The notes under the pieces are model-generated. The model had not been told where the DNA came from, ran no database searches, and worked only from the letters and a program-made list of their open reading frames with translations. Shown here in pieces: positions 18,809-28,181 of a DNA stretch of 64,000 nucleotides (positions within the stretch are counted from its first letter, which is position 1; every line of letters begins with the position of its first letter). A program made the position numbers and the translations under genes. The DNA is taken from contig JAVVEA010000012.1 of NCBI GenBank assembly GCA_032250835.1, positions 52,517 through 116,516 on the forward strand, in the 5' to 3' direction. The stretch is from a bacterium (GTDB lineage: Bacteria > SAR324 > XYD2-FULL-50-16).

Positions 18809-19500
18809 TGGACGTCGAGCGCTTCCCGCTGCAGCTGTTTGATCTCGACGACACCCTCCTGCATACCCGCGCTAGCTATTATGCAGCCCAAGAGTATGCC
18901 GTAGACGAACTGTGGGACCGTTTGCTGCTTCCCCAGCGCGAGCGCGCTTACCAAGAGATCCATTGGTTTTCCAAGCGGATTGGTTCGGTGGACCCACCAG
19001 CCTACATGAGCGCCTTCTTGCAAAGCTGGGGTATCCTCAACGACGCCAACTTACGCCTGCTGCTTGAATGTTACCGTGAATCTTATTGGAGCGACATCAA
19101 GCTTTATGAAGGCGCTCTAGAATTTTTAGAGAAGCTCCAGACCCAGGGACGCCAGTTGGGGTTGGTCAGCAATGGCACCAGCAGCACCCAACACAAAAAG
19201 GTGATGCATACCGGGCTAGGCCGGTTTTTCCCCGCTGCGGCAAGGTTCATCTCCGGCGATTTCGAGCCGAGACACAAAAAACCCTCACCCTACATGATTT
19301 TGCGGGCTTTGGAGTACTTCGGCAGAGAGCCGAGTGAAACAATATATTATGGGAATACCCAGGATGACGTCCTGGCGGCAAACTTGGCCGGAGTGACCAG
19401 TTTGTTATTTGGTCCTGAAGAAACAGAAGAAACCGCACCGCAAGCGGCCAAACCGGTCTTGCGGCGCGGATCTTGGTTGGGGATCGTAAAACCAGCCTGA
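18808..19500 (+). CDS. HAD-family hydrolase
   Basis: FDLDDTL, SNG and KKP motifs; GTG start overlapping the glmS stop. Confidence 0.85.
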   Translation: MDVERFPLQLFDLDDTLLHTRASYYAAQEYAVDELWDRLLLPQRERAYQEIHWFSKRIGSVDPPAYMSAFLQSWGILNDANLRLLLECYRESYWSDIKLYEGALEFLEKLQTQGRQLGLVSNGTSSTQHKKVMHTGLGRFFPAAARFISGDFEPRHKKPSPYMILRALEYFGREPSETIYYGNTQDDVLAANLAGVTSLLFGPEETEETAPQAAKPVLRRGSWLGIVKPA

Positions 19501-19535
19501 AGCACAGGGGGCGAACCCCTGCACCTCAATCGGCC

Positions 19536-20993
19536 TTACCTATCCATCAACAAAGAGAACACCTTCGAGGGTGAGCTATTCGCCTGCGACATCATTGCCG
19601 CAGCCGACTGCTTCATCAACTCGTTACGGGTATAATTGGCCATCTCCAAAGCGATGTCCGTATCCCGAATGGTTGATTCCGCAGCCACCATGTTCTCCTG
19701 GGTGGTCCGCAACGTCGCGATGTTGGTCGCCAGAGTATTCTTCTGGAACGAACCCAACCTTGAGCGCGTCTGGGACACGTCGTTAATGGCGGTGTCAATG
19801 ATCTTCAGAGCGTCCTGTGCCCCTTGAGCCGTCCGGACATCGATGTCCGCAAGACTTTCAAAGGCACTTGAGTTCGCAATACCCCGGCCAACTTGGTTGG
19901 CCGACATGTTCTGAAGCGCAATCTCGACCGTTTGGCCCGCGTCCGGTCCGACCTGGAAGGTTAAGGCGTTTTGAGCCACCGTAACCTTACCCACGTTCGT
20001 TCCTTCGGCCAGCGGCTGCACCCCTTCGGGCCGCCGGTACCGCACCGTCAAGTTGTCGGTCGAGGGGTTACCGACCAAACCGGTCATGGTATCCCCTTTT
20101 CCGAGCGTTGCCTCACCATTAATGGTTCCCATTAGGTCCGTACCCGAATTGGCGCTGCTTAGGCTACCGGCTTCTTGTGACAAGACACCAGCGGTCGAAG
20201 AAGACACCTGGAAGGTGTACTGAGACCCATGTTGCTTATGAGCGATCCGGATCACACCCGAGTCATCACTCGTCACGTCTACCGCGAGACCCGACTTACG
20301 GGACACCTCGGCGAAGTTCTTGATCGCACTAGCCACCGTGTCCGTAGACTTGGTGGTGTAGGTGGCGGATTTACCGCCCTCTACCAGCGTCAAGGTTTCC
20401 CCCGCTTCGACCATCTCTTTAGTCAGGGCCGTACTGCCCGACCAAGAGGCCGCGGAAGACTCTTGGGTAATGACTACGTCATACCCGTCTTTCCCAGAAG
20501 ACATGGCTTTGGTACCGGCTTCGACGAAGGACAAGCCCGCGCCGATTGAGGTACCCGAAACACCGTTTGAACCGTCCAGCAGCTTCTTAGAGCCGAATGA
20601 CGTGGTTTGAGCGATCCGGTCAATGGCCGAAATCCCTCCGCTGATTTCCGTTTGGTCGGCCTCCAGCATAACCATATCGTTCGCGCCCTCGTTGGCCGCG
20701 TGGATGGACAATTGGCGCATGCCCACCAAAAGGTTGTTCACCTCTGTTAAAGCACCTTCAGCAGTTTGAACCATAGAAACCGAGGCTTCGGAGTTCTTCA
20801 CAGCTTGCTCGATACTCGCGATTTGCGAGCGCATCTGTTCAGAAGCTACCAAAGACGCGGGAGCATCCCCTGCTCGGTTGATACTCAAGCCCGACGAAAG
20901 TTTTTCAAGGGACTTTGAGACCCTATCCGAAGCTTGTGTCAGGTTCCTATGCGCGTTCAGACTGCTGGTATTATGGTTAATTCGCAAACTCAT
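19536..20993 (-). CDS. fliC: Flagellin (paralog 1)
   Basis: MSLRINHN, KLSSGLSINRAGD, QTAEGAL, AAESTIRDTD; RBS AGGAGG. Confidence 0.96.
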   Translation of the reverse strand: MSLRINHNTSSLNAHRNLTQASDRVSKSLEKLSSGLSINRAGDAPASLVASEQMRSQIASIEQAVKNSEASVSMVQTAEGALTEVNNLLVGMRQLSIHAANEGANDMVMLEADQTEISGGISAIDRIAQTTSFGSKKLLDGSNGVSGTSIGAGLSFVEAGTKAMSSGKDGYDVVITQESSAASWSGSTALTKEMVEAGETLTLVEGGKSATYTTKSTDTVASAIKNFAEVSRKSGLAVDVTSDDSGVIRIAHKQHGSQYTFQVSSSTAGVLSQEAGSLSSANSGTDLMGTINGEATLGKGDTMTGLVGNPSTDNLTVRYRRPEGVQPLAEGTNVGKVTVAQNALTFQVGPDAGQTVEIALQNMSANQVGRGIANSSAFESLADIDVRTAQGAQDALKIIDTAINDVSQTRSRLGSFQKNTLATNIATLRTTQENMVAAESTIRDTDIALEMANYTRNELMKQSAAAMMSQANSSPSKVFSLLMDR

Positions 20994-21308
20994 ATTACCT
21001 CCTAATAGAGCGTATGCGGCTTGAGAGTATCATCGACCTCCGATGTCAATAAAACTCGAACCTTACCCTTTCGGGCAGGAAACGCTTGGGACCTGTAGGT
21101 CGCACAACCTGCGGGTACCAAAGCGGCTCCCCTGAACCACATTCCCCTTCCTAGTTTGGGGCTCAAGGCAACCGCTTTGCCGCGGTCACCCATACCTCGC
21201 CTGGAAAGGTGCTCTTAGACGATAAGTCTGCGATCCTGCCAATGATCGCAACCGATCCCCAATGGCCGGGGGGAGCAGCCCCCGGCTACGTTCATGCCGC
21301 TGTTAAGA

Positions 21309-22766
21309 TCAACCCAACAACTTCATGATCGAATTGGGCATATTGTTGGCGTGGCTGAGCATCGCCGTAGCCGACTCGACCATGATCTGGTTTCTGGTGA
21401 AAGAAGCCATTTCCATAGCCATGTCGGTGTCGCGAATGGTCGACTCAGCCGCTACGAGATTCTCCGAAGCAATCCGCAGGTTCGATAGATTGCTTTCCAG
21501 GGTGTTTTTCTGGAAGGCACCCAACTCACCACGGATGGACGTGATGTCGTTGATCGCTTGATCGATCAACCGCAACGAGTCCTGAGCCCCGTCGAAATTC
21601 CGTACGTCGATGTCCCGCAAGCTAGCAAAACCTGAATCGTTCTCAACCCCTTTGCCCAATGACTTAGAAGAGGTGTCAAACAACGATACACTAGCGGTTT
21701 GGCCCTGGTTGCCCCCGATTTGGAAGGTCAACGAGTTGTTCGAAACCGCTACGGAGCCAATTTTAACGCCCCCTTCGGGGATGTCGCCATCGGTGCCGGC
21801 CCTACCCCAAAAGCCTACTTTTAGGCCTTCGACGTTTGCCGTACCACTGGAACCGGTAAGGACTTGTCCCTTACCCGAAGTGGTTTCTCCGTTGATCGAT
21901 CCTTCAATGTCCTGACCATTGTCGATGGTCTGGACCGCCCCGCCTTCGTCCGAAAGCAGGCCAGAGGAAGTCGATGAGACTTGAAACTGTTGGCCGGAGC
22001 CATATTGTTTGTGGGTCACCACCAACTGGTTTTGTTCGTTTAGCGAAACTTCAACATCCAACCCTGAGTCTTTGACGGCGCTAGAAAGCCGTTGTACGGC
22101 CGTCTTCACGTTGTCGCTGCTCTCAGCTTTGAACCTTGCGATCTTCCCGCCCTCAATGATGGTAAACTCCTCGCCTGCGGCGATGGCTTCTTCCGTTAGG
22201 GCTTGCTTGCCGACCACTTGGCTGCGGGTGGCGTTTTTGGTGACCACTACGTCGTAACCGTCGGCGTCTGAAGCTTGAGTCTTGACGCTAGCGCCAAGAA
22301 ATTCAACTCCATTACCGATGGCCACGCCGGTGGCACCATTACTTCCATCAAGCAACTTCCGTTTGCCGAACTGCGTCTGGGCAGCGATCCGATCTAAAGA
22401 TTGAAGCGCGTTGGAAATCTCGAGTTGGTCCGCTTGCAGCATGACCTCGTCGTTCATCCCCTCGTTGGAAGCGTGAATAGACAACTGCCGCATGGATACC
22501 AAGAGGCGGTTGACTTCGTTCAGCGCACCTTCGGTGGTCTGAATGACGCTGATAGCGTTCTCGTTGTTCGTTACGGCCTGGTTGACCGAAGCGACCTGAG
22601 CACGCATCTGCTCGGAAATCACCAATTGCGCCGGGCCGTCACTGGCCCGGTTGATCTTCAATCCGCTGGAAAGCTTTTCCAGGGAGCCCCGAAGAGCCGT
22701 CTCGTTAGCGAGCAGGTTCCGGTGGGCGTTTAAGGCACTCTTGTTATGATTGATACGAACACTCAT
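21309..22766 (-). CDS. fliC: Flagellin (paralog 2)
   Basis: MSVRINHN, KLSSGLKINRASD, AAESTIRDTDMA; same length (485 aa) as paralog 1. Confidence 0.96.
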   Translation of the reverse strand: MSVRINHNKSALNAHRNLLANETALRGSLEKLSSGLKINRASDGPAQLVISEQMRAQVASVNQAVTNNENAISVIQTTEGALNEVNRLLVSMRQLSIHASNEGMNDEVMLQADQLEISNALQSLDRIAAQTQFGKRKLLDGSNGATGVAIGNGVEFLGASVKTQASDADGYDVVVTKNATRSQVVGKQALTEEAIAAGEEFTIIEGGKIARFKAESSDNVKTAVQRLSSAVKDSGLDVEVSLNEQNQLVVTHKQYGSGQQFQVSSTSSGLLSDEGGAVQTIDNGQDIEGSINGETTSGKGQVLTGSSGTANVEGLKVGFWGRAGTDGDIPEGGVKIGSVAVSNNSLTFQIGGNQGQTASVSLFDTSSKSLGKGVENDSGFASLRDIDVRNFDGAQDSLRLIDQAINDITSIRGELGAFQKNTLESNLSNLRIASENLVAAESTIRDTDMAMEMASFTRNQIMVESATAMLSHANNMPNSIMKLLG

Positions 22767-22910
22767 AACATTCTCCTTGTGAGATGGTTTAGCCCGAAAT
22801 CCTTATCGGGCCGGTAAGCCAAGTCATGGCTACTTCGCAAAGCTCGGATCGGCAAAAAAGTTCGGTCGCCAACTCCTTTTGGCGGACAACCAAATCCTTT
22901 TGGTTTCTCC
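22767..22910 (-). promoter_or_regulatory. Candidate CsrA/RsmA binding hairpins in the flagellin 2 leader
   Basis: Minus-strand hairpins AACCAA-aaggat-TTGGTT, CGCCAA-aaggag-TTGGCG and GCCCGA-taaggatt-TCGGGC, plus SD AAGGAG. Confidence 0.7.
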
Positions 22911-23038
22911 AAGCGAAGCACCCTACGAAGTCCCCCTAGAGGGGCCTCCCAGGGCAGCTCCCATATCCAACCCAAGCCTAACTTCTCGGGATATGGCAAC
23001 TGCCGGGCGTGGTTCACCTTGCGCACCTCACGCATTAT

Positions 23039-23065
23039 CCATAGGCAATCTCCAATTCAGGTTTA
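23039..23065 (-). promoter_or_regulatory. Sigma28 (FliA)-like promoter for the flagellins
   Basis: TAAA-N15-GCCTATGG versus consensus TAAA-N15-GCCGATAA. Confidence 0.55.
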
Positions 23066-23258
23066 AAATAACCCTCCGTTGGCCACAGAGGGAGTTAGTT
23101 CCTTAACGGCTAAAGGCCGCTAAAACTTAAATACTCTTCGCCGCAAACAGGCCTTGGGCTTAGATTTAACCCCGTCCAGCCTAGTTGTAGCCCGATCAAA
23201 AAAACACAAAAAGGAGCTTCGAGCCAGGTCTTAGACCCGGACCCTTGGCCCCTGTGTT

Positions 23259-23450
23259 TCATGAGGCCGCATCCAAGGGCCCGCTTTCGTATTCGTCGAT
23301 TTCGATAAACAACGGCGGATCTTCAGGCGCGTAAACCAGTTTCAATCCTGGCTGGATGCGCGTTAAGCTACGTTCGTCGAAGCAGATGTTGATCACCCGT
23401 TTCGCATAATTGGAGCTGTAGCGCTCCTTAGCAACTCGTTTGGCTTTCAT
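23259..23450 (-). CDS. Small hypothetical protein (63 aa)
   Basis: ATG preceded by AAGGAGAAAAGGA; lies between fliS and the flagellins; no recognised motif. Confidence 0.55.
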   Translation of the reverse strand: MKAKRVAKERYSSNYAKRVINICFDERSLTRIQPGLKLVYAPEDPPLFIEIDEYESGPLDAAS

Positions 23451-23468
23451 GGTCCTTTTCTCCTTTGA

Positions 23469-23522
23469 TCATGGCACAGCTTTCGCATCTCCATAATCGT
23501 CATGGTTAATTCGCAAACTCAT
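23469..23522 (-). other. 17-codon mini-ORF MSLRINHDDYGDAKAVP with a flagellin-identical start
   Basis: 23502-23524 is identical over 23 nt to 20973-20995 (start of flagellin 1); GGGGA upstream. Confidence 0.6.
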
Positions 23523-23739
23523 ATGCCGGATCCCCAAGGACCCCAAAAATTCGCGGTGCCGCACACGCCGCAGGGGAATCCAGAAGGATCCCGGATATGG
23601 GCAGAGTGATCCGACCAGACTCCTAATCAAAATCCCCTTGCCTTAAAATTTTGCCAAAAGTCCCCCGGGCCGCTTATCGTTTTTCGATGCCGCCTAGTTC
23701 TTTACCTATGGGGGCCAGTGCCTGGGCACCGGATGGGTC

Positions 23740-24177
23740 TTAACCTTCTACATTAACCGGCTTGACGGTACCGCGCATCTGCACATAATTGCTTTTGGTT
23801 TTGCGCTGTTCGATCACCGCACGCCAACCTTCGCGCAACTCGGTTAACAGAACCAAACACTCGTCGGTCAAGACCGGACTTTTTTGGATGTTCGCATCGA
23901 TCAGCCGGTTGTAGATGTAGGTGTACAGCTTCTGAAGGTTAACACCGATCTCTCCGGTGCCTTCGGTATTCAAAGACCCCAACAACTCGGCCACAATGTC
24001 CTTGGTCTTCACCAACGAGGTGTGGGCTCCTTCCAAGTCGTTTTCTTCGAGTTTGATCAAAGCTTTCTTTAAAAAGCGCACCGCGCCGTCGTACAACATC
24101 AAGATCAGGGTCGCCTGATCCTGGGTGTTTACGGCGGCCTTTTTGTAGGCCTGGCTGCCTTTGGCATAGGGGTTCAT
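23740..24177 (-). CDS. fliS: Flagellar export chaperone FliS
   Basis: LILMLYDGA, NLxxLYxY and ELREGW motifs; downstream of fliD. Confidence 0.95.
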   Translation of the reverse strand: MNPYAKGSQAYKKAAVNTQDQATLILMLYDGAVRFLKKALIKLEENDLEGAHTSLVKTKDIVAELLGSLNTEGTGEIGVNLQKLYTYIYNRLIDANIQKSPVLTDECLVLLTELREGWRAVIEQRKTKSNYVQMRGTVKPVNVEG

Positions 24178-24194
24178 GTTTCCTCCGAATTAAT

Positions 24195-27100
24195 CTACAG
24201 TTTTGCCAGTTCCTTACTCATGTAGCTTTGTTCAGCTTTTAGCTGGCCCATCTTCGAGTCAAGGCGGGCAAACTTTTCCACCAACTTTTCGCGTTTGGCG
24301 GTCACGCGCTCTTCGAGGGTTTTCACCTCCGCTTCGTAGCCCTTGAGCTGTTCTTCAACGTTCTTGGTGTAAATCCCCAGGGCCCCGGTTTCGGCGTCCA
24401 TTAGTCCGGTGATATACTCCATCACGCGGGTGCCCACCCCTTTAGTGAACACCATATTCGCTTCGGGCCCTTCGGCTAGTTGGGTGTCGGCCAGCGAGAC
24501 AAATAGCTTCAACCCTTCAAAATCAGTCCCTTCGGGCCCGGATAAGATCTGACCCGAGCCGTCCATCTCGATGCCGTTGATGCTGCCCTGAACATTTTTA
24601 CCCGCCGCCCCTTCGCCGCCCATCAAGAAATGCGGTTTGAGGTTGTCCACTTCCTTGGGCCGGACCTCGATGGCGCTTCTCGAACCGGTCAGGTTCGAGC
24701 GGATCGTGATTTTGCCTTGGTCCTGAGTCACGGCTATGTTCATGCGCTTAAGCGCTTTATCTTCCAAAATCTTTTTCTGTAATTCCTTAGCCAGCATCTC
24801 GACGCTGTCATAGGTCTTCTTTTCTAACTCGATCGGTTCGGACTCGCGTCCGTTGACCTTTAAAAAGATCACGTTATTGGTGTCGTCGACCACCACGGGC
24901 TGCGTAAAGGTTTGGGTGCTATAATACCCTTTGCTCGCCGCTTGGGTGATGTCGATGGCAAAGCCGTCTGCACCGCTCAACTTGGTTTTCTCGGTAGACG
25001 AGAGATAACTGATCGCGCTGTTCTCGCTGGTGCCATTGCTGCGGAACAGGTTGGCTACCTTAGAGAGGTCGTCATTGACCGCTTGGTTCAGTTTGTCTTC
25101 GTCTACAATAATGGTCCCTTCACCACCAATTTTGAGGCCAATGGCCATCAGCAAGTTGGCGTCTTCGGGCAACCCGCTCACCGGGTTGATGAAGATCCGC
25201 GACATCTCTTGTTGGATCCGCGGAAGGTTCCGGTCGCCCTGCAACGGGGCCGCCTCATCCTTATCCTTGTCGTACTTGATCACCTCTCTAAAGAAGGTGA
25301 GCATTTCGTTGTACGAATCCACAAATTCTTTGACGCCGGCGATGGCCTTTTCGGTATCGCCTTTGATGCTGATGGTCACCGGCTTTTCGGAGGTGGCCAA
25401 AAGGTTCAACTTGACCCCATCAATCACGTCGTCCAGTTCGTTGGTGGCGCTGGTGATCAGCAAACCGCCGCCCAATTCGGTCGCCCCTAGCCGAACCTCA
25501 GCATCTTGGGGCGGTTGGATGACCGGGCTGAAGGTGCGGAAGGTGAAGCTATCGGTTTCAAAGATACTCCCTTCGCCCAACTGCAAGCTCAAGCCCGAGT
25601 CGAAGGCTAGGGCCGCTCCGGCTTGGTAGTGGTCGCCACCTACCTTCAAAACGCCCGAATTGCCTTCATTGTCTTCCCATTTCATCTCCAAGCCCTTGGT
25701 GGTCCCGATGGTACCGGAGCCCAGGGCGGTGAAGGTATAGACCTTGGATTCATAGCCCTCAAAGTTACCTACGATCTGCTTTTCTACGTTGCTGACCCTA
25801 GGTCCTTTCGGAGCCGTCGAAGCCTTTGCGCCACCACCAAAACCGGTCGAGGCGGCATCGTCTTCTACCTCAGGGCCGATCCAACTGCTCAAATTTTTAA
25901 TCTGCCCACCTTCTACCTGATCCGACTCGGGCAACCACCAATAGTTGGCCGTCGATTCAGACTGGCATTCGAAGGTAGCATAACTGCCTTCGTTTAGCAG
26001 ACCGGGCTTCAACTCGATCTCTAGGCCTCGGCCCAAGCTCATTTTGGTGCCCGGTTGGTAACCGTCCCCGACGAAGATAGTGCCGGAGAAACCATTTTCA
26101 CTGGTCACCTCAATCTTTAAATCACCTTGGCCGATCTGACCGGAGCCCACCACCTTCATGGTGAAGCGGTCGTCTTCTGCTCCGTCATATTGGCCGGTGA
26201 CGATCGGTCCACCTTCGGTGGCCTGCTTGCCCCAACTGGCCGGTTGTTGGATCGCCGGGGCCCGCTCTTCATCAGACTTCCACCAATAGATTTCCGGTTC
26301 CTGTGGCTTAGCCTTGGCTTCGAAGCTGTCGTTAACGATCACTTCCCCATCGGTCATCACCAACTGGATCCCGTCGACTACCTCCACCGGCTCTCCGGGG
26401 GTGTAGTTAAAACTGCCCAAGTCCAGGTAGCCATGGCGTCCCTGGTTGTCTTCCCAGCGCACCCTTAAGGTTTCGCTAACCCCGACCGCGCCGGTGTTGA
26501 CCACCGTAAACTTCAGGTCTAAGGGTTCGGTGCCCGTATAGGTCCCGATCAATTCCGGGATCGCCGTCGAAGCGCCGGTTCCGGTCGCCTTGGAATCTGC
26601 TTTGTCTCCTGCCGCAGCAATCCCTTTCCACTTGCTGGGCTGGTTGTAATAGGGGTCGAAGGTCGGCGAGGGGATTCCCTCTTCGCCTTGCAGTTCGACC
26701 TGGGTAAAGATTTCCCCATCTTTGCCCGTCATCTTGCTGGTCAACACGATCTGATAGGGCGCTTCTTTGTTGCCCGTCTTGATGATGTTGGCCTCTACCT
26801 CAGCGTCCAGCGCGTTGATCGCGTCGGCAAAGCCTTGCACTGTATTGTTGGTGTCATCGACCACAAAACTTTCGGAGGCATTTTCGCCCACCGTTAACGT
26901 AACCTTTCCTTTACCAATCTGGGCGTCCTTTTCGGCAAAGCCCTGGCTGGCAATCTGGTGGTTTAAGGCCAGCTTATCGACCACCAAGGTATGTTTGCCC
27001 GGCTTCGCTCCACTGGTGGCGCTGGCGGCGACGATCTCGGGGTCCGAGCTATCGACCAGCTTGCCTTCCCACATGGACTTCTTCGAGAGCACCTCGGACT

Positions 27101-27290
27101 TATCCTTTACCTGCTCAATCAAAGCCTTGACCTGCTTCCAGGCCTCCAACTCGACGGTCTTCTCAGTGGCCCGGCCCTGGATCGGCTCGATCTTCTTTTT
27201 TTCGACCTCAACCAATTTTTCGATGATGTTCTTGACGTCCAAACCGGAGCCAAGCCCTTGCATCATATTGGGTGAAATTTCACCAGCCAT
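24195..27290 (-). CDS. fliD: Flagellar filament cap protein FliD, unusually large (about 1031 aa)
   Basis: N-terminal GLGSGLDVKNII; QDA..ATNELDDVIDGVKLNL; FVDSYN; C-terminal KFARLDSKMGQL; ATG 27290. Confidence 0.92.
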   Translation of the reverse strand: MAGEISPNMMQGLGSGLDVKNIIEKLVEVEKKKIEPIQGRATEKTVELEAWKQVKALIEQVKDKSEVLSKKSMWEGKLVDSSDPEIVAASATSGAKPGKHTLVVDKLALNHQIASQGFAEKDAQIGKGKVTLTVGENASESFVVDDTNNTVQGFADAINALDAEVEANIIKTGNKEAPYQIVLTSKMTGKDGEIFTQVELQGEEGIPSPTFDPYYNQPSKWKGIAAAGDKADSKATGTGASTAIPELIGTYTGTEPLDLKFTVVNTGAVGVSETLRVRWEDNQGRHGYLDLGSFNYTPGEPVEVVDGIQLVMTDGEVIVNDSFEAKAKPQEPEIYWWKSDEERAPAIQQPASWGKQATEGGPIVTGQYDGAEDDRFTMKVVGSGQIGQGDLKIEVTSENGFSGTIFVGDGYQPGTKMSLGRGLEIELKPGLLNEGSYATFECQSESTANYWWLPESDQVEGGQIKNLSSWIGPEVEDDAASTGFGGGAKASTAPKGPRVSNVEKQIVGNFEGYESKVYTFTALGSGTIGTTKGLEMKWEDNEGNSGVLKVGGDHYQAGAALAFDSGLSLQLGEGSIFETDSFTFRTFSPVIQPPQDAEVRLGATELGGGLLITSATNELDDVIDGVKLNLLATSEKPVTISIKGDTEKAIAGVKEFVDSYNEMLTFFREVIKYDKDKDEAAPLQGDRNLPRIQQEMSRIFINPVSGLPEDANLLMAIGLKIGGEGTIIVDEDKLNQAVNDDLSKVANLFRSNGTSENSAISYLSSTEKTKLSGADGFAIDITQAASKGYYSTQTFTQPVVVDDTNNVIFLKVNGRESEPIELEKKTYDSVEMLAKELQKKILEDKALKRMNIAVTQDQGKITIRSNLTGSRSAIEVRPKEVDNLKPHFLMGGEGAAGKNVQGSINGIEMDGSGQILSGPEGTDFEGLKLFVSLADTQLAEGPEANMVFTKGVGTRVMEYITGLMDAETGALGIYTKNVEEQLKGYEAEVKTLEERVTAKREKLVEKFARLDSKMGQLKAEQSYMSKELAKL

Positions 27291-27865
27291 ATTGAAACCT
27301 ATCCTTGAGAAGGTCGGAACCGGCAAATAGTTCCGCAGTCTTTAACTAGAGACTCCGCTCGACCCAACGGATTAAACTCCGTCGTAGGGACCTCCTTTTA
27401 TTGCTACCCGCCGTAATCAAAGGCGGACAGGTTCAGGAGCGGACCTGCCTTGCCATCGGGCAAGAGGTCCCTGAGGTTGATTGGGCCATCAAAGGCCCTA
27501 GAATCCCAAGGATAGGTTTACAATTCTTGTTCCAACTTGCCTTTACACTCCTTCTTTCTTTTTCGCCCGCCTGCTTAAGCTCCGGCGTTGGGGCCTAAGA
27601 GGATCAAGGCGATTACCGTTTAGGGGTGGCCGCGAGGGCCACTGGCTCCTCTGGTGAGCCCGATCATACGGGCCAGACCACTCGCCTCAGGCGAAATGCT
27701 GGCCACCCCATTAAGTTCCCCCTTTTAAAGGGGCTAAAGATTTGGCCTCCTACAGGCTGATAGGCGCACACCCCAGCCTGCAGGAGCCGACCCGAGGGGG
27801 TCGGTGTCATGGTGCTTTCGCACCCAATCTAACGGGCGGAACCTAGCCCTTTGGCTTAAGTCCTT
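27291..27865 (-). ncRNA. Candidate long structured leader or ncRNA upstream of fliD
   Basis: No minus-strand ORF of 60 aa or more in the track; multibranch stems AGGGACCTC/GAGGTCCCT and GGGGTGGCC/GGCCACCCC, plus many small hairpins. Confidence 0.45.
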
Positions 27866-27871
27866 GCCTCC

Positions 27872-27898
27872 TTATCGGCGGCTCCTTTTAGAACTTGA
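27872..27898 (-). promoter_or_regulatory. Sigma28 (FliA) promoter for fliD-fliS
   Basis: TCAA-N15-GCCGATAA with a perfect -10 element. Confidence 0.8.
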
Positions 27899-28181
27899 GC
27901 CTTTTTTCTTAATTTTCACTCGAACCCGCTGGGGCCTGCGTCCTAAGATGATCCCTAAGATCCATAACATCTCATCCTCCGTTGGGAGTTCTTTTTCGAT
28001 TTGGCGCCAAGGATTGCGCTTGCTTCCCTATCGGTTGCTCTGAGCTTTAACTTAACTATATTTTTTATTTTTTAGTTACAGTTAGTTGGATTTGATTATT
28101 GAGCTTGGGCTTGCCAGAATGAAGCGGTTTTGATTTATATATGACTAACTTGATCAGTTTACTCATCTATAAAAGGGCGGT

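Follow-up and report, generated by a model that had tools for sequence, protein, structure and literature searches.

A conserved copy of the flagellin translation start upstream of a small gene in flagellar loci of SAR324 bacteria

In the flagellar locus of a SAR324 bacterium, we found a copy of the flagellin translation start that stands in front of a different, small gene (63 aa, here called p63) and that is kept at the same place in related genomes. The window, i.e., the whole stretch of 64,000 nt analysed here (assembly GCA_032250835.1, contig JAVVEA010000012.1, positions 52,517 to 116,516), carries the 23-nt sequence ATATGAGTTTGCGAATTAACCAT exactly at the start of flagellin 1 (20973-20995, minus strand) and again between fliS and p63 (23502-23524, minus strand), and nowhere else. 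The copy belongs to an island of about 55 nt in two parts, box 1 (the start codon and flagellin codons 2-7) and box 2 (AUGC-N7-RUGCC), which, judged by its conservation, is a functional control element kept across this family of uncultured bacteria. We read it as a leader ORF, predicted to be translated, whose resemblance to the flagellin start would make p63 share the initiation control of flagellin; we give this reading even chances.

Flagellin is made only once the export machine is ready, and the known enforcement acts on the untranslated leader of its mRNA. That a flagellin-start copy has been retained for so long suggests that the flagellin mRNA is recognized at its first codons, and it makes p63 a putative new small player in filament assembly. 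With two boxes and about 55 nt in total, the element is a short cis-element suited to reporter and binding assays, and it would illustrate how a duplicated gene start can give rise to a regulatory leader.

The fliS-p63 locus

All genes of the window at this locus lie on the minus strand. Its features, in the direction of transcription, are as follows.

24195-27326, minus strand: fliD (filament cap), 1043 aa; Pfam FliD_N 1.4e-18 and FliD_C 2.8e-42
23740-24177, minus strand: fliS (flagellin chaperone), 145 aa; Pfam FliS 9.2e-36
23625-23650, minus strand: upstream conserved block TTTTAAGGCAAGGGGATT (in relatives TTTAAAA..AGGGGAT), one of the two blocks of the gap conserved among three genera
23545-23571, minus strand: hairpin followed by a U run, terminator-like, just upstream of box 1 (computed fold)
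23502-23524, minus strand: box 1, AT + ATG + codons 2-7 (MSLRINH), a 23-nt exact copy of the flagellin 1 start
23469-23522, minus strand: leader ORF MSLRINHDDYGDAKAVP, 17 codons (23522 to 23472) plus TGA (23471-23469), in frame with p63
23473-23488, minus strand: box 2 ATGCGAAAGCTGTGCC, consensus ATGC-N7-RTGCC
23451-23468, minus strand: p63 ribosome-binding region UCAAAGGAGAAAAGGACC with two GGA, read from the sequence
23259-23450, minus strand: p63, 63-aa ORF with the motif CFD..S..PGLK..A..DPPLF, start at 23450
23072-23092, minus strand: hairpin and T run 3' of p63, terminator-like
21309-22766, minus strand: flagellin 2, starting MSVRINHN; Pfam Flagellin_N and Flagellin_C
19536-20993, minus strand: flagellin 1 (Pfam), starting MSLRINHN; its start, 20973-20995, is the source sequence of box 1

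The 23-nt identity had been noticed in a preliminary description of this DNA, and our searches reproduced it. Even with 3 mismatches allowed, ATATGAGTTTGCGAATTAACCAT occurs in the window at only these two sites, and none of 100 dinucleotide shuffles contained two matches. When the 21-nt coding part was searched through the whole genome with up to 3 mismatches, the same two sites and one further flagellin start were recovered. The other positional details of that description also held: the identity to flagellin 1 ends after codon 7, and the copy opens a 17-codon ORF that ends 18 nt before the ATG of the 63-aa gene. A stem that it had proposed between the putative Shine-Dalgarno (SD) sequence and the ATG of this ORF fared less well: both arms exist (about 23520-23533 and 23586-23599), but their pairing is missing from the minimum-energy fold, and the arms are not kept in the two nearest genera. 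With respect to misassembly, the junction is backed by a second assembly: a DNA contig of public run X1, a run that may be connected with the source sample, covers 23456-23716 and differs at 5 letters.

The gene order fliD-fliS-gap-p63-flagellin is kept in the relatives' loci that were read, and fliS is the upstream neighbor of the leader in all 15 of 15 such loci. The fliS-p63 gap measures 289 nt in the window. A block similar to TTTTAAGGCAAGGGGATT was seen by eye in further loci, and this block is possibly a promoter. The start of p63 is preceded by a purine-rich SD in every leader of the alignment. Separately, the FliD of the window (24195-27326, minus strand) is unusually long at 1043 aa, with a big insert separating FliD_N from FliD_C.

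Of the 24 genomes of the order, 17 yielded a relative of p63; the other 64 genomes of the phylum yielded none. These proteins are 25-72% identical to p63 of the window, and C23, F24, D25, S28, G35, L36, and K37 are invariant among them. We regard p63 as a real, lineage-specific gene. A search of 5.8 billion proteins gave 67 clusters of p63 relatives, in which every given name is "hypothetical protein" and none carries a Pfam domain. The protein itself gave no Pfam match below an E value of 0.31 and no NCBIfam match, a distant relation being possible. Its AlphaFold model (pLDDT 80.5) has a strand-helix-helix-strand-strand order, and comparison of the model with solved folds gave no usable match (best Foldseek (PDB) E value 0.75, best VIA Z score 3.2); scores against the ESM Atlas were all below 0.8. 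The N-terminal part of p63 is basic.

The source genome (3.66 Mb, 43 contigs, 97% complete) encodes seven flagellin genes plus one flgL-like gene. The flagellin start ATGAGCTTGAAAATCAACCATAAC was also seen at three contig ends of this genome (C7:51-74, C15:41901-41924, and C42:4-27), where near-identical flagellin copies probably break the assembly, and the true number of flagellins may exceed seven.

Conservation, distribution and origin of the island

In our expanded comparison, leaders were collected from family genomes and metagenome loci, giving 22 distinct leaders after identical ones were removed; they are related by descent, and counts among them overstate their independence. Of the 14 family genomes with a readable region upstream of p63, 13 carry the flagellin-start copy; the exception is G001 (locus L015), which has p63 and lacks the island. 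All 14 metagenome loci found via the p63 search carry the copy as well. None of the relatives carries a flagellin between fliS and the small gene. In the 22-leader alignment, box 1 has the consensus (G)TT/TC-RTG-AGT-TTG-CGA-ATN-AAY-CAT, its TGCGAAT core occurs in 20 of the 22 leaders, and 16 columns are invariant. The ATGC and TGCC of box 2 are invariant throughout (22/22). In 18 of the 22 leaders, the ATG of box 1 lies 72-80 nt upstream of that of p63. Across the three nearest genera, by comparison, the fliS-p63 gaps are unalignable except for the island and one short upstream motif.

A sequence-only model of the island matched in full exactly once in each of 14 of the 19 family genomes, and in none of the 5 genomes from other families of the order. 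Flagellin starts match only about the first 30 positions of this model; in the source genome, the leader alone matches in full and the flagellin starts do so partly. The five family genomes without a full island copy are G001 and four in which no p63 was found; in two of these four (G006 and G014), the flagellin starts that were checked sit near contig ends. A strict pattern searched through 596 Gb (one genome per species) returned 9 contigs, all of them SAR324/Lambdaproteobacteria loci of the same family, against a chance expectation that we estimate at about one match. In two metagenome loci, L045 and L047, an insertion of about 100 nt lies between box 2 and the p63 SD, within a short hairpin that follows box 2. 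The insertion is flanked by duplicated CCTAAGG, leaves box 1, box 2, and p63 intact, and looks like a small mobile element.

A leaderless arrangement was seen in another family of the order, where genome G022 (locus L027) has p63 6-10 nt after fliS, indicating that the leader was a later addition to an older fliS-p63 pair. The gene that follows p63 in L027 encodes an atypical flagellin-like protein (MAFRLSS...).

The likeness of the leaders to flagellin starts is not confined to box 1. It reaches the bases just 5' of the ATG (GTT/GTC) and includes a GGAG-type SD in about half of the leaders. The leader ORF also aligns with flagellin codons 1-14 once one or two codons are removed (AGT..AAT GCN), which suggests an origin by duplication of a flagellin 5' end; the element probably arose in this way. 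The start of the fliS-linked flagellin is usually ATGAGTTTGCGAAT...

If the copy reports on flagellin, its codons might be expected to follow those of the cognate flagellin, a check that the preliminary description had suggested. We found such co-variation in part. Codons 2-7 are exact in three genomes (G000, G002, and G007), and in G002 a rare TTA variant is common to the box and one flagellin on the same contig, but the match is not strict. Box and own-genome flagellin differ at 1-3 positions of codons 2-7 in eight genomes. G010 and G013, which have an MSV-type box, show 5 and 8 differences, respectively; for G015, the flagellin compared is the linked one. The box of G008 keeps AGTTTGCGAAT, which exactly matches none of the flagellins found in that genome (79% complete). 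In a family that lacks p63, 3 of 19 genomes have the same 18-mer at the start of presumed flagellin genes, indicating that the flagellin spelling predates the leader. Across the order, flagellin starts differ at synonymous sites among paralogues (101 rows compared). The co-variation visible in these alignments is thus partial, and it is confounded by shared base composition and kinship.

Translated leader or RNA signal

In 18 of the 22 leaders, the flagellin frame has no stop between the start of box 1 and the end of box 2; for the other two frames, this holds in 1 and 4 of 22. From box 1 to the end of box 2, all leaders together contain 5 stops in frame 0 and 46 and 38 in the others. The fixed box 1 itself accounts for part of this asymmetry, and in the variable spacer alone the stops number 3, 8, and 10 by frame, a modest bias. 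A spacer of 10 or 13 nt separates the boxes in 19 of the 22 leaders. Reading the two boxes as a promoter of the sigma-28 type, whose consensus we take to be TAAA..GCCNAWAA, was rejected, as the spacer has two lengths that lie 3 nt apart.

In most lineages, the predicted leader ORF has 17-28 codons and ends at or beside the p63 start. Its stop overlaps this start as ATGA in 9 of the 22 leaders and lies 2-19 nt before it in 4 more (18 nt in the window); in the others, the ORF runs past the p63 start (4) or ends more than 30 nt before it (5). The start codon is ATG in 16, GTG in 3, and ATA in 3 leaders (L014, L021, and L053), and in the last group an in-frame TTG (codon 3) or an upstream GTG could provide an alternative start. 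The SD of the leader ORF is of the GGAG type in about half of the leaders and weak or absent in the rest, and box 1 is far better conserved.

Other features speak for a signal in the nucleic acid. In L024, L025, L046, and L054, the ORF ends before or within box 2, and box 2 is still conserved, which argues that at least box 2 is selected as nucleic acid and not as peptide. RNAalifold found 0 pairs in the consensus structure of 18 leaders, a result that favors a linear read-out. An Rfam 15 scan of 19000-28000 on both strands gave 0 matches at E ≤ 1. Our reading is that both levels act: most lineages would translate a leader ORF, and the two boxes would in addition be under selection as nucleotide sequence.

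Local pairings occur in some of the leaders. Pairing between the RUGCC at the end of box 2 and a GGCAY further downstream is possible in 13 of 22 leaders (4.0 expected from shuffles), and this pairing covers the p63 start in 4 of those 13; as a general feature it was ruled out, since it is missing in the window and in the two nearest genera. A transcription attenuator would be expected to have a hairpin and a U run between the leader ORF and the gene. In part of the family (L018, L019, L021, L048, L050, L051, and L053), box 2 ends in a hairpin of 4-6 bp with a U run behind it; this hairpin is likewise missing in the window and its two nearest genera. Most leaders have a strong stem-loop 10-45 nt upstream of box 1, varying in sequence, conserved in position, and often followed by a U run. 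This stem-loop may serve to terminate fliDS transcription, or it may be an attenuator; should it act as a terminator, transcription of p63 would need read-through or a promoter (none was placed).

Contigs from public RNA runs were located only on flagellin 2 and at 20998-21185. The latter, from an RNA library (run X4) and with 1 differing letter, covers 20998-21185 on the minus strand, 5-192 nt upstream of the flagellin 1 start. It hints at a long transcribed 5' leader of flagellin 1, although DNA carry-over is possible.

The evidence for selection on nucleotides raises the question of whether the leader needs to be translated at all. The island might instead be an untranslated RNA operator or decoy, in which boxes 1 and 2 are bound by something that binds the start of the flagellin mRNA as well, either a protein (p63 itself may be one, autoregulating by target mimicry) or a small RNA, any translation of the mini-ORF being incidental. 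Such a role would suit a box 1 that outdoes its own start codon (ATA in 3/22) and SD in conservation, a box 2 that persists in the four leaders with a stop before or within it, and a consensus without a fold, as expected of a sequence read single-stranded. The two boxes are also alike (UGCGAAU.. and UGCSAAA..), as two sites for a dimer would be, and the basic N-terminal part of p63 points the same way. A pure operator, however, would need neither the open frame (18/22 against 1/22 and 4/22), nor spacers differing by whole codons (19/22), nor the ATGA overlap (9/22), and p63 has no RNA-binding fold or family by Pfam, NCBIfam, Foldseek, or VIA. As for a small RNA, complements of box 1 elsewhere in the source genome reach at most 11 nt in numbers that look like chance, a result that bears on long complements more than on short seeds. 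We regard an untranslated operator as a possible but unlikely explanation of the island. The conservation at the nucleotide level and the absence of a conserved fold on the sense strand would also fit an antisense small-RNA gene, i.e., a plus-strand transcript of the island that is complementary to the flagellin start and represses flagellin translation in trans. In the window, its complementarity to flagellin 1 mRNA would be perfect over 23 nt, and in L018 and L021 the upstream hairpin is flanked on both sides by A and U runs. Against this, the features that tell the strands apart (a frame kept open, a stop that overlaps the p63 start as ATGA, and a constant distance to that start) all lie on the minus strand, the U runs after the hairpin lie mostly on the sense strand, and no promoter-like site on the plus strand points into the island, making an antisense gene very improbable.

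If translation is accepted, its product might matter more than its act. The ORF of the window shares the frame of p63 with a single TGA in between (72 nt), and in G007 (L014) the frame enters p63 without a stop, so the leader could encode an alternative N-terminus of p63, reached by stop read-through in the window and by direct fusion in G007; alternatively, it could encode a separate micropeptide, for which the recurring pattern MSLRINH-x4/5-NAK-VP may be cited. But the ORF is out of frame with p63 in 20 of the 22 leaders (distances of 74, 76, 77, 78, 80, and others), the peptide tails vary, and changes in box 1 often replace the residue (N, G, R, M, I, and Q at codons 2-6), so that a coding role of either kind seems to us most improbable. 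Least credible is that the island has no function, being what is left of a flagellin gene that was lost or duplicated in part, or that it is an artefact of assembly. The identity is indeed to a paralogous gene only 2.5 kb away, and the alignment of the ORF to flagellin codons 1-14 would fit an origin by duplication. Yet the island is conserved in at least 10 genera while the intergenic sequence around it is unalignable, it occurs in one copy per genome at a fixed position, and a separate DNA assembly bridges it. The scar of a deleted third flagellin, which the preliminary description had offered as the mundane alternative, is likewise rejected as an account of the present state, the island being conserved and fixed in position in 14 of 19 family genomes.

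Proposed mechanism and known systems

From the conserved sequence, position, frame, and uniqueness of the element, we infer that the leader is translated, that p63 is coupled to it, and that a factor recognizes the shared start. Under this model of a translated leader, whatever conditions let ribosomes start on the flagellin mRNA would also let them start on the leader ORF. Because the leader ORF ends beside or over the p63 start, its translation would then permit that of p63, either by termination-reinitiation or by opening of local pairing. A factor that recognizes the flagellin start would switch p63 and flagellin together, and p63 would be made when, and only when, the flagellin mRNA is translatable. 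Titration, a decoy role, and recognition of an export signal, all raised in the preliminary description, stay speculative. The seven residues of the box are too few to exit the ribosome tunnel.

Candidates for such a factor are CsrA-FliW, another RNA-binding factor, or p63 itself in a feedback loop. In the source genome, csrA (PF02599, 7.7e-27) adjoins fliW (PF02623, 1.3e-37) on contig C11. However, the GGA motif of CsrA is found among none of the conserved columns of box 1 or box 2, nor is there a conserved hairpin; GGA occurs in the leaders only in the two SD regions, as in any SD. A more specific and, in our view, doubtful proposal is that p63 or a partner recognizes the first ~21 nt of the flagellin coding sequence. 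In that case, p63 would be the founder of a new class of small flagellin-mRNA regulators whose own mRNA carries a copy of the target as a leader ORF, with p63 synthesis both reporting on and feeding back on flagellin initiation. If true, this would constitute a flagellar assembly checkpoint that works by target mimicry at a translation start, beside or instead of CsrA-FliW.

The closest known parallel is in Campylobacter jejuni, where the leader of the flaA mRNA is both a target and a titrator of CsrA in a CsrA-FliW-flagellin circuit (PMC4894983). There, too, the start region of a flagellin mRNA has a regulatory role as RNA and ties other flagellar genes to the translation of flagellin (PMC4894983), and csrA and fliW are also encoded in the present genome. 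The two systems differ in their sites. Those of CsrA in flaA are GGA in two hairpin loops of the 5' UTR (PMC4894983), whereas the boxes described here lie in the first codons and beyond, without GGA and without a conserved hairpin. Moreover, the copy of the start here stands before another gene.

Bacterial upstream ORFs that act by translational coupling or by unmasking of a ribosome-binding site (e.g., PMC13285730, PMC8092293) share with part of the predicted leaders a short ORF that ends at or over a downstream start (ATGA in 9 of 22). Known leader ORFs, as far as we could find, sense amino acids, antibiotics, or ions via their codons. In the literature searched, we found no leader ORF that borrows the start region of another, functionally linked gene, and no account of one flagellar gene being led by a conserved copy of the translation start of flagellin. 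Regulation by leader ORFs and by operator mimicry is known in principle, and, as far as we could find, the use of a flagellin-start copy as a leader appears undescribed.

Autoregulation by target mimicry is familiar from ribosomal-protein and threonyl-tRNA-synthetase operators, which imitate an rRNA or tRNA site. If p63 binds the flagellin start, the likeness would be close, the main RNA target of a regulator being copied in its own mRNA leader. The known operators of this kind, however, mimic a folded structure; the copy described here is one of linear sequence. Flagellin-specific translational repressors that act at flagellin 5' regions include FlbT/FlaF in Caulobacter and FljA in Salmonella. 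They resemble the proposed system in controlling flagellin post-transcriptionally through the start region of its mRNA and in being encoded beside flagellin genes, but p63 differs in having no Pfam or NCBIfam family match.

Two further observations concern CsrA. In the source genome, the flgL-like gene, csrA, and fliW are adjacent at C11:278348-280832 (minus strand), a layout typical of flagellum-dedicated CsrA-FliW systems. In addition, the ribosome-binding regions of MSV-type flagellins (flagellin 2-type) share CUCACAAGGAGA, as seen in the window at 22767-22790 and in L013, L014, L020, L022, and L025; this sequence resembles the high-affinity CsrA motif CANGGANG given in the C. jejuni report (PMC4894983).
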